DNA of 64,000 bases, from positions 7,921 through 71,920 of the forward strand of contig CAYOAM010000003.1 in NCBI GenBank assembly GCA_964402035.1. Reading direction: 5' to 3'. The position numbers were made by a program, and so were the translations under genes. Shown here piece after piece: positions 17,590 to 35,720 of the stretch. The stretch is from an uncultured Candidatus Saccharibacteria bacterium (GTDB lineage Bacteria > Patescibacteriota > Minisyncoccia > Phycocordibacterales > UBA918). Position 1 is the stretch's first letter. The number at the start of each line of letters is the position of its first letter. The notes below the pieces were generated by a model. The model was not told the DNA's origin. It ran no database searches and saw only the letters and a list, made by a program, of their open reading frames with translations.

Positions 17590-19125
17590 ATGGAAACACT
17601 TATGACCTGGTATCGCCGCTTGGAATCGTGGTACGGACGACGCGTCATCATAGGCGTTGTCTTGGCTACCCTACTGCTCGTAACTCTCGGCTTCTATCTT
17701 GGAACACGTGCAAGTGTCGCTGTAGATACACCGGAAACAAAAGCAAAGGAAGTTCGCGTTGCTAGGGCAGGATCGCTACTTAATAATGCGGCAGTCCTTC
17801 GTACTGTGGGAACCGTGCGCGCTGTTTCTGAAGCACGACTCGAAACTGAAAGTGCGGGTCGAGTGACTGCCGTAAACGTTAAAATTAACGATTTTGTACA
17901 GGCAGGTACTATCCTGGCGTCCATCGAAAACGCGAGCGAACGCGCCTCCCTGCTCCAAGCGCAAGGTGCCTATGAATCAATGCTTGCATCAAATGCGCAA
18001 TCAACAATCGGCCTTACTGAAGCAACGGCTGGAGCAGAGAACACTTACCGCACCGCATTTACGACCGCCGATGATGTCGTTCGCAATCTTACCGACGAAC
18101 TTTTTTCAAATGCAAACGAAAGTAATACTGGTCTTAAGATTGATGGCAACGGAGCCGCCCCCCGCCTCAATGCTGAGCGGGCTCTGATCGGGTCCATCCT
18201 ATCTGCGTGGAATACAAAGGTGCAAGACATCCATGCAAATGATCGCGCGGATCTCCTTTCAGAAGCAGGGCGTGATCTCACTCGCATCAGTACATTTGTC
18301 TCTGATCTTGCGTTCTTGGTCGCAGACGAAAAACCAAATGCCGCCTTTTCTGAAGACACACTCGCAAGCTACAAGGCACGACTGGGTGCCGCACGAACAC
18401 GACTCGACGGAACGCTTCAATCAATCACCAGCGCGCAGAACGCACTCAAGAGTGCTCGTCAGTCAGTTGAAGGAGGTGCTGTCGGTTCAGAATCAGAAGC
18501 CCGATTAAAGCAATCACTTGGTGCTCTTCGTGCCGCACAAGCATCATATGAAAAAACAATAGTACGTTCTCCTATCAGCGGAACCGTTAACGCGATCTAT
18601 CTCACTGCAAATACATTTGTGGGAAATGGTGCACCTGCCGCAGTTGTTGCGAACAATAATGCACTTGAAATCACCACCTCAGTTGGTGAAAATGAGCGAG
18701 CGTTTGTTGCTATCGGAAGTACGGTCCGTATCAACGACACATGGGATGGTACGATCACCCGGATTGCACCCGCTATCGATCCACAAACTGGCAAAATTGA
18801 AATAAAGGTTAGTGTAAACGCAAAAAGTGACGAGGCAAAACTTGCAAATGGCACCACGGTATCACTTGCCCTTGCAGCCGAGAGCAGTGCAGACACTGCA
18901 AACGACCTTCGTATTCCGATCAAAGCTTTGAAAATAACACCGCAAGGCACGGTGGTGTTTAGCGTGTCCGACACACAAACACTTATAGCAATACCCATAC
19001 TCATCGACACCATCATTGGCGACAGTGTGCGTATCAAAAGTGGTATCACGAGCGAATCAGTTATCGTCGATGATGCCCGTGGACTCAAAGAGAACGACAC
19101 GGTTACGATCGTTACTGGATCATAA
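17590..19125 (+). CDS. Efflux RND transporter periplasmic adaptor (membrane fusion protein, HlyD family)
   Basis: N-terminal TM. Biotin-lipoyl-like region (VKINDFVQAGTILASIEN), a long coiled coil and C-terminal beta-barrel domains. Confidence 0.8.
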   Translation: METLMTWYRRLESWYGRRVIIGVVLATLLLVTLGFYLGTRASVAVDTPETKAKEVRVARAGSLLNNAAVLRTVGTVRAVSEARLETESAGRVTAVNVKINDFVQAGTILASIENASERASLLQAQGAYESMLASNAQSTIGLTEATAGAENTYRTAFTTADDVVRNLTDELFSNANESNTGLKIDGNGAAPRLNAERALIGSILSAWNTKVQDIHANDRADLLSEAGRDLTRISTFVSDLAFLVADEKPNAAFSEDTLASYKARLGAARTRLDGTLQSITSAQNALKSARQSVEGGAVGSESEARLKQSLGALRAAQASYEKTIVRSPISGTVNAIYLTANTFVGNGAPAAVVANNNALEITTSVGENERAFVAIGSTVRINDTWDGTITRIAPAIDPQTGKIEIKVSVNAKSDEAKLANGTTVSLALAAESSADTANDLRIPIKALKITPQGTVVFSVSDTQTLIAIPILIDTIIGDSVRIKSGITSESVIVDDARGLKENDTVTIVTGS

Positions 19126-19131
19126 ATATCT

Positions 19132-22100
19132 ATGCACTGGCTCTGGAATTTCTTTCTTGATAAGCGTCAATTTAGTGTGCTCTTTATCGTAGCGCTTATT
19201 GCTATCGGTACCTACGCTGCATTTGTGATTCCAAAAGAATCTGCACCAGAAGTCATTGTACCAATCGGCATTGTTGCAACGGTATTTCCCGGTACGTCTG
19301 CATCTGATATTGAGCAACTGATCACCAATAAACTGGAAAAAAAGATTGGCGACGTTGATAACATCGACACGCTTACGTCAGTATCGCGTGATGGTGTTTC
19401 TATTATAACCGCTGAGTTCGATGCTTCTGCAGATATTAATATTTCAATTCAGGAACTCAAAGACGCCGTTGACGCAGGAAAAGGCGAGCTACCACAAGAT
19501 GCGCAAGATCCTGTCGTCACAAAAGTAAATTTTTCAAATGACCCTATTTTAATCGTCGCCGTGTCTGCTGATCTTGCTCCAACTGAATTTACGCGTCTTG
19601 GTGAACAAGTTGCGACCGAACTTGAAGCTGTTGCCGGTGTCTCCCAAGTAACAATCTCGGGTACACAAAAAAGAGAAGTACAGATCGTGGTACGTCCCGA
19701 TGCACTTCGTGCATACAACCTCACCCTGGGTGATATTTCACAAGCCTTGCGCGGAGCGAACATTGAAGTTCCGGTCGGTATAGTAAAGAACGACGGTATT
19801 GAATATGCCATCCGTTTTGAAGGTAGTATTGAAAACCCAACAGCGATTGGTGATATTCCACTTGCAAGTAAGGGAGGTCAATCTATATTCATGCGCGATG
19901 TGGCCCTCGTCATAAATGGTGTCGAGCAAGCAACGACTCTTTCACGCGTTTCAGTAGACGGAGCACCTGCAGAAAATGCGATGACGCTTTCAATATTCAA
20001 AAGTGCCGGCAGTGACGTCACCGCCATGGCACCGGCTGTACGAGCCAAGATTGATGCACTGACGCAGCCCGATGCACTACTTGCAGATTCACAAGTACTT
20101 ATCGTCTTCGATCAGGGGGCAAACGTAAAGAAAGATCTTACGGACCTCACTACTACCGGTTTTGAAACGGTACTTCTGGTTGTTGCTTGCCTCCTACTCA
20201 CGATTGGCTGGCGTGAATCTTTGGTTGCAGCACTTTCAATCCCCCTTTCTTTTGTGATCGCATTCATTGGTCTCTACGCATCAGGGAACACGATCAATTT
20301 CGTCTCGCTTTTTGCGCTCATCCTTGCGATTGGAATTCTCGTTGACTCCGGTATTGTGGTCACCGAAGCGATTCATACACGCATGCGGACGTTGGGAGAT
20401 GCCGACAAAGCAGCACGTGAAGCAATCCGCGAATACGCATGGCCACTTATTGGCGGCACCATGACGACCGTTGCAGTATTTGCACCACTCTTTTTCTTGT
20501 CAGGTATTACGGGAGAATTTATCGCATCTATACCCTACACGATTATTTTTGTTCTCGTTGCATCCATTCTGGTTGCGCTCGGTATGGTGCCATTGATCGC
20601 GATTTACCTCACGAAGCACGGGCAATCAAATCGCTTGGAGGAGATGCAGGAAGTCTATACGCACAAAGCACAAGCGTGGTACCGAGAAAAGCTCATTGCA
20701 TTCCTACAGAATATTCGTGCGCAGCGCATCTTCTTATGGACACTTGCTCTTGCATTTTTTATGACGCTTACACTTCCGGTGCTTGGACTTGTTAATGTTG
20801 TTTTCTTCCCACCTGAAAACGTCGACAATGTGTATATCGAGGTAGAAACAAAACAAGGAACAACACTTGCTGAGACGGATCTATCGCTCCGTGCCGCAGA
20901 AGAAATCCTCTATGAGCTGCCATATGTTGAATCGTTTACATCGACAGCGGGTGCAGGTTCAGTCTTTACCCAGAGCGGAAATGCTGGCGGCAAGTTTGGA
21001 AACATCAGCGTCACACTCTCAGAGACGAGAGAACTTCGAAGTCAAGAAGTAGCAATACTACTTCGTGAAGAGCTGCGCAAGATAACGACCGCTGACTTTA
21101 AAATAACCGAGCAGTCCAATGGTCCTCCGAGTGGAGCGCCGATTGTACTCAAGTTTATTGGTGGCAATCTTGAAGACCTTGCACTCGCGGCAGACAATGC
21201 CGAGAGACTACTCGCTTCGATTCCTGGTACGCGCGATATTGAGGCAAGCACCAAAAATAGCGCAACCGAAATTGTGCTCTCGATCGATCATGCAAAAGCA
21301 AATGCGGCTGGTGTCTCACCCTTTGCTGTTGGCGAAACATTGCGTTCAGCGGTATTTGGTATCACCGCAACCACAATCACTGAGAATGGTGACGATGTTG
21401 ATATTGTCGTAAAGCTCGATGTTGGGCCAAAAACGGTGGATGCGGGAGCAAATCCTGAAATCACCCTTACGGATCTCAAAAATGTTTCTATAAACACAGG
21501 AAATGGCTCTGTTCTTGTTGGCTCAATCATCAATGAAGATCTAGCTTCAGCACGAGCAGCCATTGTTCACGAAGACGAAGAACGGCTGGAAACTGTGTCC
21601 GCGTTTACCACACCAGAGGTTACCACGCTTGAAGTAACGAATGCCTTTAAGGCACGCGAATCGGAACTTAAACTTCCCGCAAACGTGCGTATTTCATATG
21701 GCGGAGAAACTGAGGACATAAACCGATCGTTTACAGAAATGTTCGTCGCTTTGATTGCAGGACTCGTGCTCATGTTGACCATCCTCGTGCTCTCATTCAA
21801 CTCAATCCGTTATTCCTTGTACTTACTCTTGGCCGTACCCTACTCACTCATTGGCGTCTTTATTGGACTTGCGATTACGCGCCAACCACTTTCGTTTACT
21901 TCGCTTCTTGGTGTTATTGCACTTGCCGGCGTCATTATCAACCACGCCATCATTCTGATGGATTCGCTCATTGTGCGTCGCGACATGCGTGCGGATGACG
22001 ACCTTATGCTAATAGTAGCGGATGGTTCCGTCTCTCGTCTGCGACCAATCTTCCTTACGACCATCACCACAATCGTTGGTATGGTACCACTCTCTACCAT

Positions 22101-22257
22101 TTCAGATTTCTGGAGCCCGCTTGCCTACACCATCATGTTCGGACTGGCCTTTGCGATGATTCTCACCTTGCTCCTTGTACCTACACTCTTCTATAGACAT
22201 GAGAAAAAAGTTCGCCAGAAAGCAACAAAAGCGATAACAGCATCGGGCAAGGCTTAA
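19132..22257 (+). CDS. RND efflux pump permease (AcrB/AcrD/AcrF family)
   Basis: 1041 aa with 12-TM topology and two large periplasmic loops. It lies 6 nt after the MFP gene. Confidence 0.9.
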   Translation: MHWLWNFFLDKRQFSVLFIVALIAIGTYAAFVIPKESAPEVIVPIGIVATVFPGTSASDIEQLITNKLEKKIGDVDNIDTLTSVSRDGVSIITAEFDASADINISIQELKDAVDAGKGELPQDAQDPVVTKVNFSNDPILIVAVSADLAPTEFTRLGEQVATELEAVAGVSQVTISGTQKREVQIVVRPDALRAYNLTLGDISQALRGANIEVPVGIVKNDGIEYAIRFEGSIENPTAIGDIPLASKGGQSIFMRDVALVINGVEQATTLSRVSVDGAPAENAMTLSIFKSAGSDVTAMAPAVRAKIDALTQPDALLADSQVLIVFDQGANVKKDLTDLTTTGFETVLLVVACLLLTIGWRESLVAALSIPLSFVIAFIGLYASGNTINFVSLFALILAIGILVDSGIVVTEAIHTRMRTLGDADKAAREAIREYAWPLIGGTMTTVAVFAPLFFLSGITGEFIASIPYTIIFVLVASILVALGMVPLIAIYLTKHGQSNRLEEMQEVYTHKAQAWYREKLIAFLQNIRAQRIFLWTLALAFFMTLTLPVLGLVNVVFFPPENVDNVYIEVETKQGTTLAETDLSLRAAEEILYELPYVESFTSTAGAGSVFTQSGNAGGKFGNISVTLSETRELRSQEVAILLREELRKITTADFKITEQSNGPPSGAPIVLKFIGGNLEDLALAADNAERLLASIPGTRDIEASTKNSATEIVLSIDHAKANAAGVSPFAVGETLRSAVFGITATTITENGDDVDIVVKLDVGPKTVDAGANPEITLTDLKNVSINTGNGSVLVGSIINEDLASARAAIVHEDEERLETVSAFTTPEVTTLEVTNAFKARESELKLPANVRISYGGETEDINRSFTEMFVALIAGLVLMLTILVLSFNSIRYSLYLLLAVPYSLIGVFIGLAITRQPLSFTSLLGVIALAGVIINHAIILMDSLIVRRDMRADDDLMLIVADGSVSRLRPIFLTTITTIVGMVPLSTISDFWSPLAYTIMFGLAFAMILTLLLVPTLFYRHEKKVRQKATKAITASGKA

Positions 22258-23501: not shown

Positions 23502-25244
23502 TTATTTGTTTACGACATCTGAAATATCAGCAATCTCTTTCATGAGACCTGTCTCAATCTGTGCAACACTTTCTTTAAGTCTTTTCAACAATTTGACTTC
23601 TTCGCGGGTTAACTTTCTTTTGGCGCTCGTCTTTTCTAGCATCTTGATATCGTCTTCAATATCAGATTGCATAAAGGCAAACGATTTTCGTACCAACGCT
23701 TGTGCCTCTGACACTTCTCCACGAATACGTTTTTTAAGATGCACACTACTTCTCCATCCATATACAAGTAGTAGCACAAGCATAAGAAGGAGTGCAAGGA
23801 GTGGTATCACAATCGAGAGTATGGTGATCATCATTGAATCGGTTCGCATGAGTACAGGCGCTACGACCGTAACATGTTTTGTTGCGCTCGGTAGACTCAT
23901 CGCACCACGAGCATCCTGTACGAAGACTGTGTATGAAAAGACACCAACATCGAGCTTTTGTTCAAGAGTAAAATATCCATCAACACCACTTTGACCTGAA
24001 AGGGGAATTGTGTCTCCTTTCTCCGACACCATATTCATCGTAACGGTACTATTTGGATATGTGGTACCTGAAACACGAAAGCGTTCACCTGCAACAATGG
24101 TTTCCGGAACGTCCGTTAGTACCGGTGTATCAATCGGATCAACAGTAAATTCAGCAGCAGCGGTACGATAGTTTCCTGTACGGTCGTACACTTTTGCAAT
24201 CACAATATGCTTCCCAAGAGGGACTACCGGTGTTCGATACTGCGTTTCGTCAGCACCATCAATCGTAACAACGTCTCCGGTATCAATTTGAAGTTCATAT
24301 GATGCAATACCTGAACCACCATCTGTGGCACTCAGTATAAAACCAGCCGTAGGATCAGTATGATCCTCTCGCGTAATAGGACTCAAATCAAAGCTCTCTG
24401 GCTTTCTCGTATCGATATGGAGTGGAAAATGGCTGACTGCACCCCACCCTTCACTGTTTCGCGCTTGCACATGAAAATATGAAATGCCGTCAGTAAGGTC
24501 AGTAATCTCTCGCTCCACAATGGGATTCTGGTAGACCACCGTTGGTATGCTTTCCGCTTTTGCATCAACGAGCGTACGAACACTGGTAACATCATTTTCT
24601 AGAGTCCACGCTAAGCGTGCGGTCGTATCTCGATACCAGGCTTTTGTATCTCCATGCGTTGTCGAGGTCACTTTTGGAGCAGCGGGAGTACCTGCATTAC
24701 TCGGTTCATTGGGAGCAATCTCCTCCTCTACCGCTTTCTCAATAAGCACAAACTGTGCCGTGCCTTTTTTTGAAAGTATGTCGGTACCCTCTCCGTCATT
24801 TGCAAGAGCAGCGGCATCTACAAAACTGAGTGAAGCGCTCCCTGCTTTTTTTACACGAAAATTAATCGTTACAATTTTCCCACTAGCACCGGTAAAACCG
24901 GGATTCAGTACTACTCCTTCAAACGACACCGTACCTGCAGTATTTACAAATACCGGCTCTTCTACCCACAATGAAATAATAGATTGGTTTTTTGAAATCG
25001 AGGTAACTTCCAATGTATCGGGTGGAAACGATACGACTCCTGAAAGCGCATTCACGGCACGATCGCTACTTGCTACATATACTGACACTGCAATGGGATC
25101 TCCAACAGTATACGTACCAGACGCTGGGACAAGTGAAAGATTCGCCGCTGATACAGATAGAGGCGCACAAAAGCAGAGAGCTACGATAATCAGACGGCTG
25201 ATCGACGTCGCCTTCGCAACATAAAAAGACAAAAGATCGCGCAC
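23502..25244 (-). CDS. Cell-surface protein with an N-terminal cohesin-like domain, Ig-like domains, and a C-terminal TM plus coiled-coil tail
   Basis: Signal peptide. Cohesin-like block (ANLSLVPASGTYTVGDPIAVSVYVASSDRAVNALSGVVSFPPDTLEV…SFEGVVLNPGF). The C-terminus has a TM (ITILSIVIPLLALLLMLVLLLVY) and a charged helical segment. Confidence 0.5.
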   Translation of the reverse strand: MRDLLSFYVAKATSISRLIIVALCFCAPLSVSAANLSLVPASGTYTVGDPIAVSVYVASSDRAVNALSGVVSFPPDTLEVTSISKNQSIISLWVEEPVFVNTAGTVSFEGVVLNPGFTGASGKIVTINFRVKKAGSASLSFVDAAALANDGEGTDILSKKGTAQFVLIEKAVEEEIAPNEPSNAGTPAAPKVTSTTHGDTKAWYRDTTARLAWTLENDVTSVRTLVDAKAESIPTVVYQNPIVEREITDLTDGISYFHVQARNSEGWGAVSHFPLHIDTRKPESFDLSPITREDHTDPTAGFILSATDGGSGIASYELQIDTGDVVTIDGADETQYRTPVVPLGKHIVIAKVYDRTGNYRTAAAEFTVDPIDTPVLTDVPETIVAGERFRVSGTTYPNSTVTMNMVSEKGDTIPLSGQSGVDGYFTLEQKLDVGVFSYTVFVQDARGAMSLPSATKHVTVVAPVLMRTDSMMITILSIVIPLLALLLMLVLLLVYGWRSSVHLKKRIRGEVSEAQALVRKSFAFMQSDIEDDIKMLEKTSAKRKLTREEVKLLKRLKESVAQIETGLMKEIADISDVVNK

Positions 25245-26056
25245 ACTATTAGTATACCGACAATTGTGTATTTCGTGATCTCAAATGTCTGTGGATGCAG
25301 TGGATAGACAATAGCGTTTCGCGTGTTACCCACTCGATCAATAGCACGCACATAAATCGTAGAACTAAGTTTTTGATTCTTCAATACATAAGGGCTTTCT
25401 GCCTCTCGCCACCAGCCAAAAACACCCTCCTTTACTTCGTAGTGATCAATACCTGAGCTTTTATCCTCTGTTGAAAAGACGAGAAAGTATGCCCCGTCAA
25501 ATACATCAGCGTCGCGCACTACTTCAGGTCGAAATGCTTCCGGGTCTTCATCGTCCATGACGACACCAGCTGCTGTGTGTGATGGTATACCTGCTCCAAT
25601 TACAATCGGACTTATCACCGGTGAAAAAGGAATCAGGGTTCCTAGACCATCGTTCTTGAGCAATTGCACCGCATCGAGTGTCACTGCTCCTTTACCCAAC
25701 GACTGCGCCTTAAAATAGAGTGTGACGACATCAACCTTCCCCATGAAACCACCGGGCGTAATACCAGAAAAATGTATACCTGCGGCGGTTGCTTCAGGTT
25801 TTGATACCCAAAAATTTAGTACGGACGCACTATCATCAAACCCTTCATACTGCAGCAAGGTTGCTGGATAGGTCATCACAGCCTCAAAAGCGTTTGCAGA
25901 AACATCCGTATCTATACTCAGCGTAACGGCAATGGTTTCTCCTACTGCCCCCTCCATAGGCAGAACAGTTATTTCGCTCGTTGCCGCAAACGATGGCTCA
26001 TATACAGCAAACCCGCCAATCACCAACATCGCAACATATGTGTAAAGTAAATACAT
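25190..26056 (-). CDS. Cohesin-like domain protein, C-terminally TM-anchored
   Basis: SEITVLPMEGAVGETIAVTLSIDTDVSANAFEAVMTYPATLLQYEGF…GIHFSGITPGGF, with a C-terminal TM plus RRRRR stop-transfer sequence. Confidence 0.5.
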   Translation of the reverse strand: MYLLYTYVAMLVIGGFAVYEPSFAATSEITVLPMEGAVGETIAVTLSIDTDVSANAFEAVMTYPATLLQYEGFDDSASVLNFWVSKPEATAAGIHFSGITPGGFMGKVDVVTLYFKAQSLGKGAVTLDAVQLLKNDGLGTLIPFSPVISPIVIGAGIPSHTAAGVVMDDEDPEAFRPEVVRDADVFDGAYFLVFSTEDKSSGIDHYEVKEGVFGWWREAESPYVLKNQKLSSTIYVRAIDRVGNTRNAIVYPLHPQTFEITKYTIVGILIVCAIFCLFMLRRRRRSAV

Positions 26057-26060
26057 ACAG

Positions 26061-27092
26061 CTATCCAGTCCAATAAAAGGCCATGATACTAAAGTCGATA
26101 ATATTTATGACACCATCACCATTGAGTTGTGCAGCCTCTCGAACGGAAAACGACTCACTAAGAGTACGCCGATACCAAAATGCAGCAATTGAAAAGTCGA
26201 TCAAGTTTACCGTGCAATCACCGTTTAGGTCTGCTTTCTTGACGCAGGCATTTGTGCCCACAGTCGCAACATTTTTAGACCCAACCTTAAAGGGTACCTC
26301 AATACTAAACGGGCTTATCTCACTACTGGTCGCCGAACGTGATTTTGTATGGTGATCCCCGAGCACCAACACTGCAGTATCAAAATTGTGCAGATAGGTA
26401 CCACGTACATCTGCAGGAGTCTGCACAAAAAACTGTTGCGGAGATTGTACTTCGAGTGTCACGGTCGAAGCTGGTACACTTTGTCCAAAAAAAGTGATGG
26501 GGTCACCACGACGCACTTCGCTTTTATCAGCGGAAAGTGTCGGCGCTATAAAAACTCCATCGATTTTTGTGAGTACATTGCGCGTGAGTGTAACATCATA
26601 CGGTAACGTTGCCGATCGTTGGTGATGTATGTCTTCGCTAAATAGTACAAAATGGTAACTACCTGACGAAAGTCCACTGATGGTTACCTGAAAATTTGCG
26701 AGTGAACTCGCCACGGTTTTTGCTACCCGTTGTCCATCTTTGAGGATCGTAATCGTGCTACCGGGGTAGGCTCTTCCTTCAAACACTATCGTGGCATTTC
26801 CATTTCCCCCGCTCGACCCGCCGCCACCTCCTCCACCGCCACCTCCTCCTGCTACGCAACTACTGGTATCAAGTTCGCACGCAGCTGTACAAGATAGCGA
26901 CCCCGAAGAAAATCCTTGAGATACACACGTCTTGCCGTCAAAATCCGAACCATCGCATGCTTCACCGACCTCAGCTATTCCATCACCACATCCTGGAACA
27001 ATAGCGACTATATCTACATCTTCCCCGTGGAGGGATATGGGTGCAATTAAGAAACATACTACAGAGAAACTGAGTAGAAAAAGATGACGCAT
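26061..27092 (-). CDS. Secreted dockerin-containing protein with a Myxococcus-type Cys-rich repeat and a poly-Gly linker
   Basis: Cys-rich repeat CGDGIAEVGEACDGSDFDGKTCVSQ…C. Linker of G11-SSGGNG. Two dockerin Ca-binding repeats at the C-terminus (DLNGDCTVNLIDFSIAAF… and LNGDGVINIIDFSIMAF). The start was taken at the internal Met that gives a signal peptide. Confidence 0.6.
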   Translation of the reverse strand: MRHLFLLSFSVVCFLIAPISLHGEDVDIVAIVPGCGDGIAEVGEACDGSDFDGKTCVSQGFSSGSLSCTAACELDTSSCVAGGGGGGGGGGGSSGGNGNATIVFEGRAYPGSTITILKDGQRVAKTVASSLANFQVTISGLSSGSYHFVLFSEDIHHQRSATLPYDVTLTRNVLTKIDGVFIAPTLSADKSEVRRGDPITFFGQSVPASTVTLEVQSPQQFFVQTPADVRGTYLHNFDTAVLVLGDHHTKSRSATSSEISPFSIEVPFKVGSKNVATVGTNACVKKADLNGDCTVNLIDFSIAAFWYRRTLSESFSVREAAQLNGDGVINIIDFSIMAFYWTG

Positions 27093-27102
27093 GAATACAA
27101 CG

Positions 27103-28053
27103 CTAGCGCGAAGCAACACTTCGCGCAATAATCCATTGATTATACTTACGAAGACTGAACCGACCTGCACCCAGCAACAAGATCACAATACTGAGTAATT
27201 GCCAAGGAATGATAAAGAAATGATAGCTATTTTGATTTTTGGTATCAGTAGTCCCCCACGACAAATCAAGCACGGCCGTGTACCAACCAAAATGAAAATC
27301 ACTCAATTGTCGCTTGGCTATAGCAAAAAAACCTTCAGCTTTTGGTTCCAATATTTTCCACGTTGATTCAAAGCGTCGAGCACTATTGGGCAAAACACTC
27401 CCTTCGCTCTCATTTGCTGAAAATGTAGTAACGGTACTTCTAAAACTATTTTTTACACCCACTGTTCCTCGCGGCACAATACGATCACCACCGGTGTTGT
27501 TTATGCGATACGAAAATGCAATAGGTAGCTGAGAAAAAAACCTGCCTCCCGGAGCATTAAACTCAAGAACACCACCCCCTTCTTCGATGTCTCCCGCAAC
27601 GCGCAAAAAGACCAAGACGCCAAGCCTTCCACCAATAGAAACTTCACCACCCTCTTGCGTTTTTGGATCTTGTCCACCAAAAAATACAGCAGCAAAATAA
27701 CCGCCCGGTTCAGTTTCTTTTGGTATCGTTATCGAAAGAGGAATCTTAATGCGCTCAAGTGGAGCAAGCGAGACACGACCTCCTGCTTGCATCCAGGTTG
27801 CGAGGCCGTCCTTCGCTCCGACAAAATACGGAGATCCAGTATCGCCGCTCGGTTCAAAATTTTCGTACGAGGGGTAAAATTCTTTTGGCTCGTTTTGTTC
27901 ATTGAGGAGTTCAATGTCAGTGTAGAGTGTCTGTCCTGGGTTCCCAGTTATTTCGATCTTTACGGGAGACAGTGTAAGCGCCTCGACGTGTGGCGCGTGT
28001 AAAATCACCGCACACACCACAAGACCAAAAAATATTCTAAAATTGTATTTCAT
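27103..28053 (-). CDS. Secreted beta-rich protein with a C-terminal TM anchor (accessory protein of the surface locus)
   Basis: Signal peptide, Gly-rich beta-strand pattern, C-terminal TM (HFFIIPWQLLSIVILLLGAG) and a basic tail. Confidence 0.45.
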   Translation of the reverse strand: MKYNFRIFFGLVVCAVILHAPHVEALTLSPVKIEITGNPGQTLYTDIELLNEQNEPKEFYPSYENFEPSGDTGSPYFVGAKDGLATWMQAGGRVSLAPLERIKIPLSITIPKETEPGGYFAAVFFGGQDPKTQEGGEVSIGGRLGVLVFLRVAGDIEEGGGVLEFNAPGGRFFSQLPIAFSYRINNTGGDRIVPRGTVGVKNSFRSTVTTFSANESEGSVLPNSARRFESTWKILEPKAEGFFAIAKRQLSDFHFGWYTAVLDLSWGTTDTKNQNSYHFFIIPWQLLSIVILLLGAGRFSLRKYNQWIIARSVASR

Positions 28054-28098: not shown

Positions 28099-29172
28099 CT
28101 AATAATTGGCCGTTGCCGTGTATGTGAGGGTCGCGCTATAACTTCCTGCCTCTGTGTTTGAGCCAATGTTCGCAAGGTAGCGAGCTGAATAGGTAGTATT
28201 TGCGGTCGCTACCGTTGATGTAGCTACCGTATCAGGAAAAGCGCCAGAATCAAATGCAAAGCCCGAGGCCGCATACGGCGCATTGACCGCACCATTACCA
28301 CCTGCCGCTGTCAAACGCAGTCCGAACTGCTCAGTACCAACAGATGAGGCTGAGTTTGAGGCGCCAATTGCAGTAATCGTGTTCCCACCAGAGGTTAGGG
28401 TATTTCCGTTCAACGTGAGCGAATATCCATTACTTGCATTTGTGCCAACAATCAAATTGTGTGCCTCGACTTCTGATGTGTCACCCGACGCCGTACCCGA
28501 TGCGTATCGTGCAGCGCCAGAGGTCAATGTACCAAAACTGATGCTATTGTCTGAAATACTGAAGGTAATGGACTGAGCGACGGTAGCCGAAATAGCCACC
28601 TGGTCATCGTTCACAATACTGACGGTGATATCTCCAGAGTCAAAACCGTTACCACTTATGGCGATTCCGTATGACGTTGCCACGCTTGGATTGGTCGAAC
28701 TGGCGGCAGTAAAAGAGAAGATCAGTACATCATTGGGGTCGACAGCAGCTGCACCAATTCCATCGGTAGGTGCTGTGAAAGTCCACACACGGCCCTGTGT
28801 TCCTGTTGTAGCTACAGCCCAGCGTGATCCATCAGCAACACCATGCAACGTTTCTGTCGTCTCAAGACCAGTGGAAGGGCCATGGGTAAATGTCACCGAT
28901 GTAGTCGCCTTTCCCGTAAAGTTAAAATCCGATGGGAACGTAATAACAATGGTGTCGGTATTGTCGCTCGCACCTGTTGGGCTCGTGAATTTGATCGAGT
29001 GAGTCGATGTTGCAGGGCTAATCTTGGACGAGGACATTGTATCCGATGCGCTCGTTATTGATGCGGCATGAACGGTGACTCGTGGAAATACCCACGCTAC
29101 GAGCATAGCAATCACCAAGAGAGCACTCAAAGCAGCCCGACGAGAAAAAATATGGGTTACATTCATATGCAT
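28099..29172 (-). CDS. Secreted two-domain protein with a C-terminal TasA/camelysin-like domain (putative fibre/pilin-like subunit)
   Basis: The C-terminal 170 aa are homologous to the C-terminus of the giant protein. The motif ITFSISDNSISFGTL resembles the FFSDKEVSNNTFAAGTLDL motif of TasA/CalY. Confidence 0.5.
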   Translation of the reverse strand: MHMNVTHIFSRRAALSALLVIAMLVAWVFPRVTVHAASITSASDTMSSSKISPATSTHSIKFTSPTGASDNTDTIVITFPSDFNFTGKATTSVTFTHGPSTGLETTETLHGVADGSRWAVATTGTQGRVWTFTAPTDGIGAAAVDPNDVLIFSFTAASSTNPSVATSYGIAISGNGFDSGDITVSIVNDDQVAISATVAQSITFSISDNSISFGTLTSGAARYASGTASGDTSEVEAHNLIVGTNASNGYSLTLNGNTLTSGGNTITAIGASNSASSVGTEQFGLRLTAAGGNGAVNAPYAASGFAFDSGAFPDTVATSTVATANTTYSARYLANIGSNTEAGSYSATLTYTATANY

Positions 29173-29242: not shown

Positions 29243-32200
29243 CTAAAAAGTGGCAGTGACTGTGTAGGTAATCACCGAAGTATAATTCCCCGCCTCCGTC
29301 ATACTCTCTATATTCCCAAGATAATATGCATCATAGATCGTGGCTGTTCCATCACCATCACCGGTCCCAATCTCATCGGGGAACGAAGACGTCGCAAAAG
29401 CAAAGGTAGCTGCACTGTATGGTGGTGTCGAGAGCCCTGTCCCAGAAATGACATTGAGCCGCACGCCAAATTGCTCCGTCCCAGGGCTTGATATGGTGGC
29501 TGTTTCGCCAATAGGATTTATGGTAGCTATATCGTAGGTCAAGGTACTGCCATTTATTGACATGCGGTACCCACCCAGTGCATTGGTGACCACAGAAATG
29601 CTATGCGCTGGCTCACTCGGAGACGTTGTGCCAAGGATATCCCCCGTTGCGTAGCGTGCTTCGAGCGCTGAAAGAGTGCCAAAACCGACGGTATTATCGG
29701 ATATGCTCATAGTTATGTAGTTTTCAGGTTCTTTCTCAATCCACCGCACACTAACCATCGCAAAATCCCAGTCACGTCCCACTCCCCCAACCACGTTCGT
29801 TGAGACTGAGGTACGCAAACGCAAGTTCATCAAGTTGTTTTGGGTATCCACAAAGTCGTCTGCTGATTCTTGCTGCTCTGCGACACGCCACGTATCAAAC
29901 CAGCTGTACGATGTTGCGGCATTGGTATCGGTGCCCGGTGTGTTGATCCAGCCTGAACCAACCTCTTCACCTCCAAGACCTGAGTTGCCGGCATAGTCTT
30001 TCATCTGTACGTCATTGGTGAGTGACGCAATATTGGATCGATGCTTCACCGCATAGTGAATACCGGTAATAGAAGTCGAGGACGCCACCGTCATGGGAAA
30101 AGAGAGATTTTGCGAGAACGCATACTCGGCATTCACCGTATCGTCGTCATTGTCTTGTGGGTAGTGGTCGACGGGATATTCGATCGCTGTCGTTGCATTC
30201 CACGTTGAGGTCAACGTGGTGCCCGTGATCGCTTCAGCGGTACTGCGAGTTCTTGTACACTCAGATGCAGTACCACTTCCCCATGATATTTCGCAGAGTG
30301 CTGAATCAGTATTGACGGAACCCACCATCATATAGATGCGATCAAACTGAAGGTTCGCGAGTGCCGCAGGACCGTTGGTGGTAAAGCCCACGCGGACTTC
30401 ACCGGTTGGTGAGATGTAGTCATCAAAGACAAAGCCGGGTATCAAGGTGTCGTTGAAACTGAACGCAAGTTCGATATCAGTGGTACACGCTGAGGCGAAG
30501 ACCGTCGATGACGCTGCTGTCCACACACTGTTTTGAAAATCCCAAAGCGAAATGGAGAAACTTAATCCCGTATTGTTTTTGCACACCTCGGGCTGCACCA
30601 AAAAGGTGTTCATACCCGCAAGCGTCTTCACGTTGGTGAATGAGAAGTAGAAACTGATGGGGGTTGAGGTCGCAGCCATATACACAGTGAATTTGTTGCC
30701 ATCAGATCCAGTGAGTGTCGTACCGATAGCGCCCACGAGGTCTGAGATGAAGTTTGAACTTGTTGCGGCGGTCGTCGTCGCGAAGCCTGATGGTTCATAT
30801 ATGGGATCAATGGCAACTTCGAGCTGCGCAAAATCGGTTTGATGTGCAGTGACCGAATTCACGGTTGAGTAGGTGCGCACAATGACGCGCTTGCTTGATG
30901 TGGTTGAAGCGAAGTTTGAGAGTGGTGTACTAATGACCGTACCGGGAGTCACGGTGCGGGTGGAAAAATAGCCATTGTATATTTCATACGTGCGCTGGGT
31001 ATCGGAGGTGTTGGTGTGATTCGTGCGTCGTGGTTGGAGTGTGCGCCACCCACCACCGGTACATTCACTATCAGCAGCATTATCAACGCCGGTGCTTGAG
31101 ACCCAATCACAGATCTGATGGGTGTATGCATCACCGGTCGTAATGTTGGTGTCTTCAAGTGTGATGAGCATTTTGTTTGCGCCATAGAGGTTGACGCTAT
31201 CAAAATAGATTTGCTTGTCCAAGCCTGAGGTGGTGCGAGTTGCCGTCCAATAGTTGCCGTCGTTCCCCAAGGTCGCTCGCCACGAGTCGAGGTGGTTTAA
31301 GTTGGTCGAGGTCGCAACACCGACGATGAGGGCGCCACCGGTGGGGGCGTATTGGGAAGTCTCGGTTACACGGCGTGGTTCATCAATCCACCGCACACTA
31401 ACCATCGCAAAATCCCAGTCACGTCCCACTCCCCCAACCACGTTCGTTGAGACTGAGGTACGCAAACGCAAGTTCATCAAGTTGTTTTGGGTATCCACAA
31501 AGTCGTCTGCTGATTCTTGCTGCTCTGCGACACGCCACGTATCAAACCAGCTGTACGATGTTGCGGCATTGGTATCGGTGCCCGGTGTGTTGATCCAGCC
31601 TGAACCAACCTCTTCACCTCCAAGACCTGAGTTGCCGGCATAGTCTTTCATCTGTACGTCATTGGTGAGTGACGCAATATTGGATCGATGCTTCACCGCA
31701 TAGTGAATACCGGTAATAGAAGTCGAGGACGCCACCGTCATGGGAAAAGAGAGATTTTGCGAGAACGCATACTCGGCATTCACCGTATCGTCGTCATTGT
31801 CTTGTGGGTAGTGGTCGACGGGATATTCGATCGCTGTCGTTGCATTCCACGTTGAGGTCAACGTGGTGCCCGTGATCGCTTCAGCGGTACTGCGAGTTCT
31901 TGTACACTCAGATGCAGTACCACTTCCCCATGATATTTCGCAGAGTGCTGAATCAGTATTGACGGAACCCACCATCATATAGATGCGATCAAACTGAAGG
32001 TTCGCGAGTGCCGCAGGACCGTTGGTGGTAAAGCCCACGCGGACTTCACCGGTTGGTGAGATGTAGTCATCAAAGACAAAGCCGGGTATCAAGGTGTCGT
32101 TGAAACTGAACGCAAGTTCGATATCAGTGGTACACGCTGAGGCGAAGACCGTCGATGACGCTGCTGTCCACACACTGTTTTGAAAATCCCAAAGCGAAAT

Positions 32201-33178
32201 GGAGAAACTTAATCCCGTATTGTTTTTGCACACCTCGGGCTGCACCAAAAAGGTGTTCATACCCGCAAGCGTCTTCACGTTGGTGAATGAGAAGTAGAAA
32301 CTGATGGGGGTTGAGGTCGCAGCCATATACACAGTGAATTTGTTGCCATCAGATCCAGTGAGTGTCGTACCGATAGCGCCCACGAGGTCTGAGATGAAGT
32401 TTGAACTTGTTGCGGCGGTCGTCGTCGCGAAGCCTGATGGTTCATATATGGGATCAATGGCAACTTCGAGCTGCGCAAAATCGGTTTGATGTGCAGTGAC
32501 CGAATTCACGGTTGAGTAGGTGCGCACAATGACGCGCTTGCTTGATGTGGTTGAAGCGAAGTTTGAGAGTGGTGTACTAATGACCGTACCGGGAGTCACG
32601 GTGCGGGTGGAAAAATAGCCATTGTATATTTCATACGTGCGCTGGGTATCGGAGGTGTTGGTGTGATTCGTGCGTCGTGGTTGGAGTGTGCGCCACCCAC
32701 CACCGGTACATTCACTATCAGCAGCATTATCAACGCCGGTGCTTGAGACCCAATCACAGATCTGATGGGTGTATGCATCACCGGTCGTAATGTTGGTGTC
32801 TTCAAGTGTGATGAGCATTTTGTTTGCGCCATAGAGGTTGACGCTATCAAAATAGATTTGCTTGTCCAAGCCTGAGGTGGTGCGAGTTGCCGTCCAATAG
32901 TTGCCGTCGTTCCCCAAGGTCGCTCGCCACGAGTCGAGGTGGTTTAAGTTGGTCGAGGTCGCAACACCGACGATGAGGGCGCCACCGGTGGGGGCGTATT
33001 GGGATACCGCAAGCGCTTTCTTGCCCACCGTCTCCTCAAGCAGAACATGTTGTACTTCCTTCCCATTCATAATCCAACGATGGAGATACCCAGTCTCAGA
33101 GAGTGACGAAAACAAAGCAAGTATGGCTACCATACCCACCACCATGCCCACTTTTTTGATACACAGATGCGCTACCAT
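29243..33178 (-). CDS. Giant secreted repeat protein (1311 aa): 2 x 549-aa identical repeats plus a C-terminal TasA/camelysin-like domain
   Basis: N-terminal signal-anchor. Two identical 549-aa repeats (SQYAPTGGALIVG…DWDFAMVSVRWI). The C-terminus (ITMSISDNTVGFGTL…EAGNYTSVITYTVTATF) is homologous to 28099-29172. Confidence 0.7.
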   Translation of the reverse strand: MVAHLCIKKVGMVVGMVAILALFSSLSETGYLHRWIMNGKEVQHVLLEETVGKKALAVSQYAPTGGALIVGVATSTNLNHLDSWRATLGNDGNYWTATRTTSGLDKQIYFDSVNLYGANKMLITLEDTNITTGDAYTHQICDWVSSTGVDNAADSECTGGGWRTLQPRRTNHTNTSDTQRTYEIYNGYFSTRTVTPGTVISTPLSNFASTTSSKRVIVRTYSTVNSVTAHQTDFAQLEVAIDPIYEPSGFATTTAATSSNFISDLVGAIGTTLTGSDGNKFTVYMAATSTPISFYFSFTNVKTLAGMNTFLVQPEVCKNNTGLSFSISLWDFQNSVWTAASSTVFASACTTDIELAFSFNDTLIPGFVFDDYISPTGEVRVGFTTNGPAALANLQFDRIYMMVGSVNTDSALCEISWGSGTASECTRTRSTAEAITGTTLTSTWNATTAIEYPVDHYPQDNDDDTVNAEYAFSQNLSFPMTVASSTSITGIHYAVKHRSNIASLTNDVQMKDYAGNSGLGGEEVGSGWINTPGTDTNAATSYSWFDTWRVAEQQESADDFVDTQNNLMNLRLRTSVSTNVVGGVGRDWDFAMVSVRWIDEPRRVTETSQYAPTGGALIVGVATSTNLNHLDSWRATLGNDGNYWTATRTTSGLDKQIYFDSVNLYGANKMLITLEDTNITTGDAYTHQICDWVSSTGVDNAADSECTGGGWRTLQPRRTNHTNTSDTQRTYEIYNGYFSTRTVTPGTVISTPLSNFASTTSSKRVIVRTYSTVNSVTAHQTDFAQLEVAIDPIYEPSGFATTTAATSSNFISDLVGAIGTTLTGSDGNKFTVYMAATSTPISFYFSFTNVKTLAGMNTFLVQPEVCKNNTGLSFSISLWDFQNSVWTAASSTVFASACTTDIELAFSFNDTLIPGFVFDDYISPTGEVRVGFTTNGPAALANLQFDRIYMMVGSVNTDSALCEISWGSGTASECTRTRSTAEAITGTTLTSTWNATTAIEYPVDHYPQDNDDDTVNAEYAFSQNLSFPMTVASSTSITGIHYAVKHRSNIASLTNDVQMKDYAGNSGLGGEEVGSGWINTPGTDTNAATSYSWFDTWRVAEQQESADDFVDTQNNLMNLRLRTSVSTNVVGGVGRDWDFAMVSVRWIEKEPENYITMSISDNTVGFGTLSALEARYATGDILGTTSPSEPAHSISVVTNALGGYRMSINGSTLTYDIATINPIGETATISSPGTEQFGVRLNVISGTGLSTPPYSAATFAFATSSFPDEIGTGDGDGTATIYDAYYLGNIESMTEAGNYTSVITYTVTATF
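29746..33003. repeat. Perfect tandem direct repeat, unit 1647 bp, about 2 copies, in-frame within the giant gene
   Basis: Identical embedded ORFs lie exactly 1647 bp apart (30628-30831 = 32275-32478; 30949-31203 = 32596-32850). The sequence blocks are identical by eye (e.g. 29746… = 31393…). Confidence 0.9.
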
Positions 33179-33179
33179 A

Positions 33180-34748
33180 TTATTTCTCTACAATCGGATC
33201 AGACTCAATAACAAATGAAATGTCGTCAGGTTCTAGCGATACGTCATATGTTTCTTGCTCAAGTTGCAACTGTGTATCCCCACGAATTTCACGGGTCTGA
33301 GAAAACATTGTCCGCGCATTAGTATCAAAACCGACAAATGCACCCCCTTCTGCGGATGCCCAGATCACTTTCCCTTCTACATACTCAAACGGTGAATCAA
33401 GCAACATGGTTGTGTTGTCGGCGAGTTTTAAGAAACCAATCGCACTTCCGAGCGCATGCTCCTTGAGCCACGCTTCGGTACCACCTTCTCTTGTACGTAT
33501 AAAATAGAGCGTTTTCCCTTGATCTAATGGCTGTATTTGCGTTACAAATCCTCCCACGAAAAATAATCTTTCATGTACCACCATACGTTCTGCAGTATCA
33601 GTTTGAAAACGAAGCATGTGGGGACCTGGATCTACTAATGCTTGCAGCGTCACCGCATACGTATCTTCATCAATGCCGACCACGGTATGAGGGACAAGCA
33701 CTCCATCCACATACACCGTTGTTGATGCTTGTGGAGCAGGCGGAGTCGAAGCACTGGTGGTTGCGTTTGAAGAACTTGTAGCAGTTGTCTCAACGGTGTC
33801 AGGCTCATCATGAAGCACCTCTATATCTACTACCTCGTCACTGTTGGTCTGCACTGTTGTCTGATCGACCTCCTCGTGCTCAGTTTCAATCTGATCCACA
33901 GCATGCTCGACGTCACTATCACTTAGGTTCTGAATCGCAGGATCAGCTTCACTTTGTTCTATAGTCGAGACGGATTCCAGTGTGCCTACATCTACTGAAA
34001 CCTCGGCAGGCAACTCTTGAGGAATCTCCGCTAAAGCCGGCGAAGAATCTTCAGTGACTTCTTCTGGCGCTATATCTATGATCAAACTAAACAACGTCTC
34101 AACCGTTGGTTGCATAAACTCAATGACGGTCTGCGCAGCGTCAGAGACCATGTCTACTATGGTCTCTGCAGCGTCAGCAACCTGCGTAACAGTGTCTGAA
34201 ATGGTGCCTTGTATGGCAGCAAAGAATCCTTCTTTTGTGGTACTTCCTTGGTTAAAAATAAAAGTAGGCAGTGTACTCATCTCAAAAAACGCCGCATTCG
34301 CAATCTCGGCCTCAGAGTATAGTGTTGTGGTCGCAGATGTCGTTGCAATAGGCTGGGGTAACACCGCAATATCTTGTACGACGTCAGGCACTACCGGCAA
34401 CACCGGTTCCGATAGCACCGGCACAAGTTCCGCATCTTCAAAACCAACCTCCACATCACTATTGATTGGCAGATCAACATCATCTGGCGCGGAAGAGACT
34501 ATAAATTCACTCGGTTGCGATGGAGGATCAGCTATCGTTTCGGTGCCTTGTCCAATATCTTCCGCAACTGGAGGTATTTCATTCTCGGGTGCAATATCGA
34601 TGGGTGTCGTCTCTAGAGCAGGCGATGTCGCACCAACCTCTTCTATCTCTTCTGCATAAGTAAAAGAAACATAAAAAAAGTTGTACGCGAGTACCAGTAT
34701 CACGCATAACCACAGAAAAAAATTCTCCTTTCCTCGAAAGAAATTCAC
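33180..34748 (-). CDS. Extremely acidic secreted protein (Asp/Glu/Pro/Val-rich) with a folded C-terminal domain
   Basis: N-terminal TM/signal and about 350 aa of acidic low-complexity sequence. The C-terminal 170 aa form a non-repetitive domain. Its stop abuts the giant gene's start, suggesting an operon. Confidence 0.55.
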   Translation of the reverse strand: MNFFRGKENFFLWLCVILVLAYNFFYVSFTYAEEIEEVGATSPALETTPIDIAPENEIPPVAEDIGQGTETIADPPSQPSEFIVSSAPDDVDLPINSDVEVGFEDAELVPVLSEPVLPVVPDVVQDIAVLPQPIATTSATTTLYSEAEIANAAFFEMSTLPTFIFNQGSTTKEGFFAAIQGTISDTVTQVADAAETIVDMVSDAAQTVIEFMQPTVETLFSLIIDIAPEEVTEDSSPALAEIPQELPAEVSVDVGTLESVSTIEQSEADPAIQNLSDSDVEHAVDQIETEHEEVDQTTVQTNSDEVVDIEVLHDEPDTVETTATSSSNATTSASTPPAPQASTTVYVDGVLVPHTVVGIDEDTYAVTLQALVDPGPHMLRFQTDTAERMVVHERLFFVGGFVTQIQPLDQGKTLYFIRTREGGTEAWLKEHALGSAIGFLKLADNTTMLLDSPFEYVEGKVIWASAEGGAFVGFDTNARTMFSQTREIRGDTQLQLEQETYDVSLEPDDISFVIESDPIVEK

Positions 34749-34803: not shown

Positions 34804-35340
34804 CTAGTGTTCCTGCTGTCTACGAATAAATAACATTAAAACCGCAATCATCGCAAAGAGCGATACGGCCATCAAGGGAAATGTGATGTACCCAAACTCA
34901 AACACAATGCGTTCTGCACACTCGACCCCAGGAGCTGCGGTAGGACACACAATAAACGGCGAGCCGCCCATCTGCAAATAATGGTGATAGAGAGCGATCA
35001 CGCCTCCCACAAAAGACAGACCGAGAATATAATCTGCAATATTTTTATCATGCTTCCATAGTGCCATGCCTGAGAGGAGTGCTATGGGATAGAGTGCGAT
35101 ACGCTCAAACCAACACAAGCCACAGGGTGTAAAACCAAATACTTCTGAATACACCAAAGTCAGTATAATACCCGCGATCGATAGCAAAAATACTTTAAGA
35201 AGCGCAAATCTCCCCACAAAATTGCGAAGCTCGGTAAAATCAGCTTTTTTAAGTACGATAAAAAGCGCTACTGCACCGACCTGGAGACCAATGGTACCGA
35301 CCGCCAGTAGATAATTTATATCCGCTATGTAGTCAAGCAT
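34804..35340 (-). CDS. dsbB: Disulfide bond formation protein B (DsbB/BdbC family)
   Basis: 4 TM. First loop Cys pair CGLCWFERIALYP (compare E. coli DsbB C-x-x-C…YER). Second Cys pair CPTAAPGVEC. Confidence 0.7.
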   Translation of the reverse strand: MLDYIADINYLLAVGTIGLQVGAVALFIVLKKADFTELRNFVGRFALLKVFLLSIAGIILTLVYSEVFGFTPCGLCWFERIALYPIALLSGMALWKHDKNIADYILGLSFVGGVIALYHHYLQMGGSPFIVCPTAAPGVECAERIVFEFGYITFPLMAVSLFAMIAVLMLFIRRQQEH

Positions 35341-35345
35341 AGATA

Positions 35346-35720
35346 TTATTTCGGAAGCTCACAGCTTGTCGTTTCTGCAAGCTCTTTGAGTGTCAGCTCG
35401 CCACTCTTCCTCGTGCCATCCTTAAATATCCAGAGCGGATACCCTTCTACCTTTGCATCAATACACACTTGTGTCTGGTTCTTACGATCCGGGGTTGAAC
35501 ACTCAATATAGGGAAGTTTTTTTTGTGAGTTACCAAAGATTGCCTTTTGTGATTGGCAATGTGGACACCAAAATGCGCCATAGAACTTTGCTCCAGCATC
35601 AGTGAGACACTGCGCAAACCCATCAAGTTTTCCCGGCAATGTCTTCGTCCAAACGATGGTGCCAATAAAAAGGACAACCAATAGTATAAGCCCCACAAAC
35701 CATCCATATTTTTTGACCAT
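35346..35720 (-). CDS. Membrane-anchored thioredoxin-fold thiol-disulfide oxidoreductase (DsbA/BdbD-like)
   Basis: N-terminal TM. CxxC active site FWCPHCQSQ in a thioredoxin-fold context. Lies 6 nt upstream of the DsbB gene. Confidence 0.75.
   Translation of the reverse strand: MVKKYGWFVGLILLVVLFIGTIVWTKTLPGKLDGFAQCLTDAGAKFYGAFWCPHCQSQKAIFGNSQKKLPYIECSTPDRKNQTQVCIDAKVEGYPLWIFKDGTRKSGELTLKELAETTSCELPK

Follow-up and report, generated by a model that had tools for sequence, protein, structure and literature searches.

What does a dockerin hold, and by what is it held, in a bacterium whose dockerin gene lies apart from any cellulosomal genes? The question is raised by dock343, a gene for a 343-amino-acid (aa) protein in a 64,000-nucleotide stretch of DNA (the window, i.e. 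the whole sequence analyzed; contig CAYOAM010000003.1, positions 7,921 to 71,920, assembly GCA_964402035.1) of an uncultured Candidatus Saccharibacteria bacterium. Its neighbours are referred to here as coh288, coh580, chap316, pilin357 and big1311. The ultra-small bacteria of the candidate phyla radiation (CPR, Patescibacteria) spend their lives on the surface of host cells, and little has been learned so far about the assembly and retention of their surface fibres. Our answer, a tentative one that we rate just below an even prospect, is that dock343 serves as the base (terminator/anchor) adaptor of a donor-strand-exchange pilus of the Pam type. The elements distinguished within the gene are as follows; immunoglobulin is abbreviated Ig, and pLDDT is the predicted local distance difference test score.

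dock343, 26061-27092, minus strand: signal peptide, donor-like strand, six-Cys module, poly-Gly tract, two Ig domains and dockerin; 343 aa.
Mature N-terminal strand EDVDIVAIVP, 26994-27023, minus strand: aa 24-33, with inward-facing V-I-A-V, as in the pilin linker strand.
Six-Cys module, 26856-26990, minus strand: aa 35-79, a distant relative of the DUF4215 and myxo_disulf_rpt repeats.
Poly-Gly tract (putative hinge) of 11 residues, 26817-26849, minus strand: aa 82-92; a Gly/Ser/Asn-rich stretch continues to aa 99 (26796).
Two tandem Ig-like domains (the "stalk"), 26268-26795, minus strand: aa 100-275; AlphaFold2 pLDDT 86-96.
Dockerin module, 26064-26246, minus strand: aa 283-343, with calcium loops at aa 288-299 and 322-333 and the covarying pair Cys283-Cys293.

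The ATG codon of dock343 is located 10 nt past the stop codon of the preceding gene, chap316, and the same initiator Met is found in dock343 homologues. Residues 1-23 form a hydrophobic signal sequence. A lipoprotein signal was considered and rejected, as there is no lipobox ahead of Cys13 and this Cys is not conserved. No transmembrane helix was predicted in the protein, which ends in the dockerin instead. The AlphaFold2 model (a monomer, as is that of coh288 below) has a mean pLDDT of 79 and contains two confident seven-stranded Ig domains. In a Foldseek search with this model the stalk was matched by tandem Ig/FnIII adhesins and by RbmA (4be5, E=3e-5), and a Big_6 match was found in 24 of 25 members of the family.

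The dock343 family is large, comprising more than 1161 close homologues of approximately 345-350 aa each and 1948 clusters at 50% identity (E<1e-30). It is encoded in at least 522 species genomes, and every named one belongs to the Patescibacteria. The carriers include Kaiser-, Wolfe-, Zambryski-, Nomura-, Komeili-, Falkow-, Magasanik- and Campbellbacteria, Ca. Microsyncoccus archaeolyticus and others. At NCBI a number of the family's proteins already have domain-based names, and some coh288 orthologues appear there as "cohesin domain-containing protein".

The C-terminal location of a dockerin, proposed in the initial annotation of the locus, was confirmed with the Pfam hidden Markov model (HMM) Dockerin_1 (PF00404), which matched aa 287-337 of dock343 with 25.0 bits (gathering score 22.9, E=2e-5) and also matched 23 of 25 family members. 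The family profile retrieved dockerins of solved structure (2y3n_B, E=4e-4; 5nrm_B, E=1.7e-3), and the corresponding part of the AlphaFold2 model has a loop-helix / helix / loop-helix arrangement (pLDDT 84-92). Two canonical calcium-binding repeats had been claimed, which proved slightly overstated. Loop 1 (DLNGDCTVNLID, aa 288-299) is canonical, and its D-N-D-D pattern is present in 180 of 186 family sequences, while loop 2 (QLNGDGVINIID, aa 322-333) has Q rather than D at position 1. Family-wide, N3, D5 and D12 of loop 2 are kept and position 1 is mostly H, R or K, with D in just 38 members. The Cys preceding loop 1 and the Cys at position 6 of this loop covary (both in 117 sequences, neither in 60, one in 9), and this covariation indicates a probable disulfide clamp at loop 1.

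Two genes adjoining dock343 are candidates for encoding the partner of this dockerin:

coh288, 25190-26056, minus strand: signal peptide, cohesin (aa ~24-155), FnIII-like domain and C-terminal transmembrane helix (aa 257-283); 288 aa.
coh580, 23502-25244, minus strand: signal peptide, cohesin (aa ~32-170), Big_13-type Ig domains, transmembrane segment (aa ~468-503) and conserved helical tail, putatively cytoplasmic; 580 aa.

These genes, which overlap by 55 nt, had been described as lying upstream; transcription in fact runs from the dockerin gene toward them, and they are downstream of it. The proposal that their products have cohesin-like N-terminal domains and C-terminal membrane anchors held for the predicted fold and for the anchors, each protein having a strongly hydrophobic helix toward the C-terminus, but the Cohesin HMM (PF00963) scored below its gathering threshold of 24.1 in both (17.8 bits for coh288, 22.8 bits for coh580). 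The same model matched 12 of 31 coh288 orthologues and 20 of 37 coh580 orthologues (best E 7.7e-7 and 2.1e-7, respectively). In the AlphaFold2 model of coh288 (pLDDT 88.7) the cohesin part probably has the nine-stranded beta-sandwich (jelly-roll) fold of cohesins: the top 42 Foldseek matches in the PDB are all cohesins, the best of them being the cohesin+FnIII construct 2w1n (E=5e-9). Single cohesins superimpose on it over approximately 140 residues with a template-modelling score (TM-score) of 0.7-0.8 and a root-mean-square deviation (rmsd) of 2.2-3.3 Å (2vo8: TM-score 0.81, 2.2 Å). The cohesin domains of coh288 and coh580 are paralogues (HMM cross-hits of 1e-29 and 3e-16).

Two further features of the cohesin proteins were observed. 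Past its transmembrane segment, coh580 has a conserved, charged, helical tail of approximately 80-85 aa (window 23502-23770), with the consensus KExxEAE...KRxLTxEE...KEIxDI among 37 orthologues. This tail would be cytoplasmic, and coh580 may thus link the surface complex to the cell interior. In two other loci (L014:10939-13554 and L016:6871-9471) both cohesin genes form one in-frame open reading frame (ORF) of 866-871 aa, in the order cohesin, FnIII, transmembrane segment, second signal/transmembrane segment, cohesin, Ig domains, transmembrane segment, so that both cohesins are kept outside. The fusion suggests that the two membrane proteins act side by side.

A secreted dockerin protein thus adjoins two membrane-anchored proteins of predicted cohesin fold, and no cellulosomal enzymes accompany them; for this reason a cohesin-dockerin tether outside a cellulosomal context, as the initial annotation had put it, is the natural reading. 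We consider such a tether, taken by itself, likely. Each of the two proteins has one cohesin, the 64-kb window has no dockerin besides that of dock343 and no cohesins besides this paralogous pair, and neither a scaffoldin nor, in the family searches, any glycoside hydrolase or carbohydrate-binding module (CBM) family was found among the operon proteins. The dockerin-like and cohesin-like modules might instead have ligands other than each other, such as Ca2+ or an envelope component in one case and a host surface or pilins in the other. The non-canonical second calcium loop, with its first Asp missing in approximately 80% of the family, and the subthreshold Cohesin scores of the window proteins would fit this explanation. 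It is improbable, given that a single dockerin gene adjoins cohesin genes almost invariantly (70 of 70 loci), that the window has no further dockerin or cohesin with which either could pair, and that the coh288 fold matches cohesins crystallized with dockerins.

If the cohesins are the socket, what is plugged into it? A precedent is the Pam pilus, a donor-strand-exchange fibre of Ca. Mycosynbacter amalyticus described in June 2026 (Troman et al., bioRxiv 10.64898/2026.03.03.709456). It involves membrane-anchored PapD-like chaperones (PamC/PamD) and a transmembrane RbmA-like terminator, PamR, composed of an N-terminal strand, two FnIII domains and a C-terminal transmembrane helix (bioRxiv 10.64898/2026.03.03.709456). 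The genes preceding dock343 resemble this system:

chap316, 27103-28053, minus strand: signal peptide, beta-rich ectodomain and C-terminal transmembrane helix; putative PamC/D-like (DUF916/WxLIP-like) chaperone.
pilin357, 28099-29172, minus strand: Pam-type pilin with CPR_Pam_pilin_C at aa 224-357 and the linker strand DQVAISATVA at aa 190-199 (28576-28605).
big1311, 29243-33178, minus strand: C-terminal Pam pilin domain without a donor strand; putative tip adhesin.

Between 34748 and 23502 every gene lies on the minus strand, with little space from one to the next, and the operon has the order big1311, pilin357, chap316, dock343, coh288, coh580. The NCBIfam model CPR_Pam_pilin_C (NF058581, cutoff 55) was matched by pilin357 (80.4 bits) and big1311 (56.1 bits), with no match on dock343. 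PF06030 (DUF916/WxLIP_PGBD) was matched by 16 of 40 chap316 orthologues; this family consists of membrane-anchored proteins with two Ig domains that are predicted to insert a strand into a partner (PMC10599100).

The arrangement recurs in other genomes. Among 70 loci of different species with enough downstream sequence, 66 have the dockerin, short cohesin and long cohesin genes in this order. Profile counts on 61 loci, made without the family of the 1311-aa protein, placed a chaperone-like gene directly upstream of the dockerin gene in 55 and Pam-type pilins in 39, at the sensitivity of the profiles. Judging from gene order and content, the trio is not free-standing and is predicted to make up the 3′ half, a conserved one, of an operon for a Pam-type pilus, a context that the initial annotation had missed.

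In the pilin family a strand DDQVx[VI]xATV directly precedes the C-terminal acceptor domain, and by its position this strand is the presumed donated linker of the Pam architecture. Where a locus encodes two Pam-domain proteins, the donor strand is always present in the pilin adjacent to the chaperone and absent from the larger upstream protein (big1311 included). The large protein would accordingly be an acceptor only, as expected of a tip subunit, and the pilin both donor and acceptor. The third possible combination is found in dock343, which has a donor-like strand and complete, confident Ig domains but no acceptor domain.

The mature N-terminus of the dockerin family is conserved as T-V-x-I-x-A-x-V-P-G. 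When a scoring matrix built from the pilin donor strands was applied to 2466 ORFs, the N-termini of the dockerin proteins were the main matches outside the pilins (e.g. ITVEITATVP of a dockerin protein vs NQVDITATVP of a pilin). Conversely, the linker strand ranked first among 346 positions (z=4.0) when the dockerin strand profile was slid over the pilin alignment, and the profile scored lower at every position of the three other operon families (chaperone and cohesins). The strands of dock343 and pilin357 both show V-I-A-V on one face.

This likeness follows the type of locus. In loci with long chaperones the dockerin proteins have V-I-A-V in 31 of 32 cases, like the pilin linker (V-V/I-A-V). 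In loci with short chaperones (~200 aa) the pilins are of 150-180 aa, with their donor strand at the N-terminus (xVTATVTV, pattern h-a-h-h), and the dockerin proteins have I-A-V-I in 13 of 13. In a third type the dockerin protein starts with (V/T)QEAST and a small pilin with TQQAST or SQEAST; the QEAST-type motif occurs 11 times in 544,611 residues, 10 of them in these dockerin and small-pilin proteins. The mature N-terminus of dock343 thus appears to mimic the donor strand of the pilin of the same locus, a correspondence seen in three locus types. In the monomer model the strand has no defined structure (pLDDT <50); it is retained in P0263, a variant without the Cys module.

A second pilus gene set precedes the trio in 16 loci (L015, L018, L020, L027, L033, L048, L054, L059, L061, L065, L068, L073, L074, L076, L083 and L084). 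It comprises a large protein and one of 150-180 aa, both with C-terminal (Q/E)QSxxVTVQAxA, the small one with N-terminal xVTATVTV, and a chaperone-like gene of ~200 aa. These proteins look like classical pilins with N-terminal extensions and are not recognized by the Pam models.

Between strand and stalk lies the Cys-rich module, in which six Cys residues (35, 46, 56, 68, 72 and 79) are invariant across the family. It had been called a Myxococcus-type repeat. This label was not supported by the corresponding HMM, TIGR02232 (myxo_disulf_rpt), which reached only 9.2 bits (cutoff 20.8, E=1.1) over the first half of the module; the isolated module gave no match in a Pfam search and none of significance in NCBIfam. 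A distant kinship did hold up. DUF4215 was reached at E<0.01 by 3 of 25 dock343 orthologues, and the 47-aa module, present once in dock343, occurs in 10-30 tandem copies in giant proteins, one of which (P0246) has 15 copies (each E ~1e-18) beside bona fide DUF4215 repeats. We consider the module a probable sister of the myxo_disulf_rpt/DUF4215 repeat class, with a resemblance that is real but distant.

The following tract contains exactly 11 Gly residues (aa 82-92), as first noted; it does lie within the reported near-homopolymeric run at 26815-26860, the extent of which was approximately 11 nt too long. The longest Gly run in 194 family members ranges from 2 to 18 (median 8). Many proteins of the representative library align with the family only from the tract onward (profile positions ~88-349) and have other heads in front of it, namely FnIII, an "SxNF" module or extra domains. 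On these grounds the tract is best seen as a putative hinge, and as the likely junction at which variable heads are shuffled onto a conserved Ig-Ig-dockerin stalk.

A slipped-strand (contingency) locus that varies the protein within populations had been envisaged for this tract. A perfect 15-bp unit repeated 1.9 times at 26821-26849 and the variation of the tract between species (2-18 Gly) would suit such a role. Its codons are nevertheless mixed GGN codons, the gene shows 100% DNA identity between two assemblies obtained from different samples, and the tract sits at a domain junction conserved throughout the family; moreover, triplet or 15-bp slippage would stay in frame and so could not provide an on/off switch. 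We regard this role as very improbable, and the length-variable site is better described as a conserved linker.

Replacement of the head was observed in the dockerin proteins of L066, L071, L078, L082 and L085 (437-460 aa) and in P0261, P0269 and P0283, where the poly-Gly tract and the stalk are preceded by FnIII and an "SxNF...AGFLYFP" module in place of the donor strand and the Cys module. The same "SxNF...AGFLYFP" module also opens some tip-like Pam-domain proteins, e.g. L021:5845-6849.

Such exchangeable heads bear on a different explanation, according to which the dockerin and cohesin tether to the membrane an adhesin or receptor made of an Ig stalk and a Cys-rich head that binds ligands, the pilus genes adjoin the trio only as genes for another surface structure, and the N-terminal strand is merely the first strand of the head. 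Many family members do combine stalk and dockerin with other heads, the Cys module also occurs in long tandem arrays of giant adhesin-like proteins, and the trio is found without pilin or chaperone genes in 6 of the 61 loci and in L051. Against this stand the position of the dockerin gene directly after the chaperone gene in the large majority of loci, the agreement of its strand with the cognate pilin donor strand in the three locus types, the persistence of the strand in the variant without the Cys module, and its disorder in the monomer model. We consider stand-alone display of this kind unlikely, while giving it real weight.

Several observations weigh against a pilus-base function of dock343, beside the altered second calcium loop and the low Cohesin scores mentioned above. 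Some loci have the trio with neither pilin nor chaperone genes nearby, and their dockerin proteins have FnIII or "SxNF" heads and no donor-like strand; since such loci exist, the stalk-dockerin-cohesin set can apparently work without a pilus. The order of the trio is broken in two species by a fused cohesin ORF and in two loci by the absence of coh580. The 40 chap316 orthologues gave no match in NCBIfam, and a PDB sequence search with their profile returned nothing useful. The strand itself is short and rich in V, I, T and A, a composition common in beta-strands. An unbiased test of the best 9-mers in same-locus vs cross-locus pairs was weakly positive (20.4 vs 19.2, permutation 20/10000; control 18.5 vs 18.1), and the strand argument therefore rests on position-specific comparisons. 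The type A/B association (Fisher, 2e-10) is uncorrected for phylogeny and reflects perhaps as few as three independent events.

With these reservations, the pilus-base reading can be set out as follows. After export by the Sec pathway, dock343 would first form its disulfides. We infer that its dockerin then binds the cohesin of coh288, of coh580 or of both, and is held non-covalently at the cytoplasmic membrane, with the two Ig domains acting as a stalk and the poly-Gly hinge giving flexibility. The N-terminal strand (V-x-I-x-A-x-V) would slot into the last pilin at its open C-terminal domain and thereby cap polymerization and tie the fibre to the cell. From tip to base the fibre would consist of big1311, a pilin357 polymer and dock343, and the membrane-anchored, DUF916-like chap316 may act as the chaperone for the strand-exchange steps. 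The trio would in this way fill the role of PamR of Ca. Mycosynbacter, split into a soluble adaptor and cohesin sockets.

The comparison with Pam brings out both likenesses and differences. Both systems are CPR-specific, and their pilins are built from an N-terminal sandwich, a linker strand that is donated, and a C-terminal Ig-like domain that is open. A two-domain chaperone anchored in the membrane (here a putative one) belongs to each system, as does a terminator (here a candidate) in which an N-terminal strand accompanies a tandem pair of Ig/FnIII domains. Unlike PamR, which is by definition a transmembrane protein, the candidate terminator described here has no transmembrane helix, ends in a dockerin, is followed by two separate cohesin membrane proteins, and contains the six-Cys module and the poly-Gly hinge. 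The lineages also differ, being Paceibacteria/ABY1-type here and Saccharimonadia/Microgenomatia there. Neither cohesin nor dockerin is mentioned in the Pam paper (bioRxiv 10.64898/2026.03.03.709456), and a full-text literature search combining dockerin, donor strand and pilus yielded a general review only.

Other known systems share single traits. The non-cellulosomal pairs of Clostridium perfringens (glycosidase/toxin complexes, GH84C 2w1n) and the cohesin of Archaeoglobus fulgidus (2xdh) likewise have no role in cellulose degradation, and a two-domain arrangement of cohesin and FnIII gave the closest structural match; here, by contrast, the cohesins are on bitopic membrane proteins and the dockerin is borne by a non-enzymatic Ig-stalk protein encoded in a pilus operon. 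As in the anchoring scaffoldins of cellulosomes (type II, SLH-anchored SdbA/OlpB/Orf2p), a cell-bound cohesin would hold an extracellular assembly through a single dockerin, but with a transmembrane helix in place of SLH repeats and without a multi-cohesin scaffoldin, CBM or glycoside hydrolases. The terminators of chaperone-usher pili (PapH) and the basal pilins of sortase-assembled pili (SpaB) are also dedicated last subunits that stop polymerization and link the fibre to the cell; they do so by usher retention or a covalent link to peptidoglycan, whereas a non-covalent cohesin-dockerin joint is proposed here. In the WxL/WxLIP (DUF916-DUF3324) clusters of Firmicutes (Hassan et al. 2023, PMC10599100) one C-terminal domain is common to a small and a large protein, and a membrane-anchored partner with two Ig domains is predicted to insert a strand; chap316 orthologues match the DUF916 model, but WxL domains are absent here, as are cohesin and dockerin there. 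An essential dockerin-domain protein of Southlakia, SEML1_0315 (Cell 2023, PMC10633639), was considered as an orthologue of dock343 and rejected, as it is a 927-aa stand-alone protein of different layout. All in all, the system is best filed as a donor-strand-exchange pilus with a cohesin-dockerin joint as its proposed anchor, and not as a cellulosome, non-cellulosomal cohesins and dockerins being already known.

Further features were noted at and around the 5′ end of the operon. The big1311 gene contains an exact direct duplication of 1622 bp (29736-31357 and 31383-33004, spacing 1647 bp), which doubles a block of 549 aa. In a second assembly (L005), which comes from another sample, the block is present once, giving 747 aa vs 1296 aa; this reflects either copy-number variation or an assembly difference. 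The adjacent gene (33180-34748) encodes a very acidic secreted or anchored protein of 522 aa, with low complexity in its first 330 residues, for which no family match and one weak homologue among the other loci (L013) were found. In 15 loci the large tip gene is preceded by a gene for a ~320-aa membrane-anchored protein that matches Beta-lactamase2 (PF13354), e.g. L001:3555-4514 and L002:4856-5821; the window has no homologue of this protein, and the 522-aa acidic protein occupies its place.

Beyond the operon, genes with a possible role in protein folding were distinguished:

DsbB-family disulfide oxidoreductase, 34804-35340, minus strand: accompanied by a thioredoxin-like gene at ~35346-35720, both directly upstream of the operon and on its strand.
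HtrA-like protease, 36302-37525, plus strand.

It is possible that these three genes serve in the oxidation and quality control of Cys-rich secreted proteins. Their arrangement is local to this genome and is not conserved in the other loci. On the other side of the operon, at 17590-22257, are genes for an HlyD-like membrane-fusion protein and a full-length AcrB-family resistance-nodulation-division (RND) transporter (E=5e-166); CPR bacteria are generally regarded as having no outer membrane. An Rfam search of the window identified one tRNA only. A scan for promoters and terminators gave results at shuffle expectation and was not used.

The anchoring of Pam pili has so far rested on one predicted protein, PamR, in one lineage. 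The three-gene dockerin/cohesin module described here follows pilus genes in hundreds of species, including the lineage of a cultured archaeal parasite (Ca. Microsyncoccus, L061), and thereby provides a specific candidate mechanism of anchoring, open to test, in the largest class of CPR bacteria. It is quite possible, if somewhat less likely than not, that in Paceibacteria/ABY1-type CPR bacteria the cohesin-dockerin joint is the standard membrane socket of donor-strand-exchange pili, a cassette that accepts other heads at the poly-Gly junction. The head-hinge-stalk-plug design is naturally modular and could serve surface display. If the proposed function is true, this would be the first pilus anchored by cohesin and dockerin, and a means of modular surface display in bacteria without sortase- or usher-type anchoring; it would extend cohesin-dockerin biology from the scaffolding of enzymes to the anchoring of organelles.

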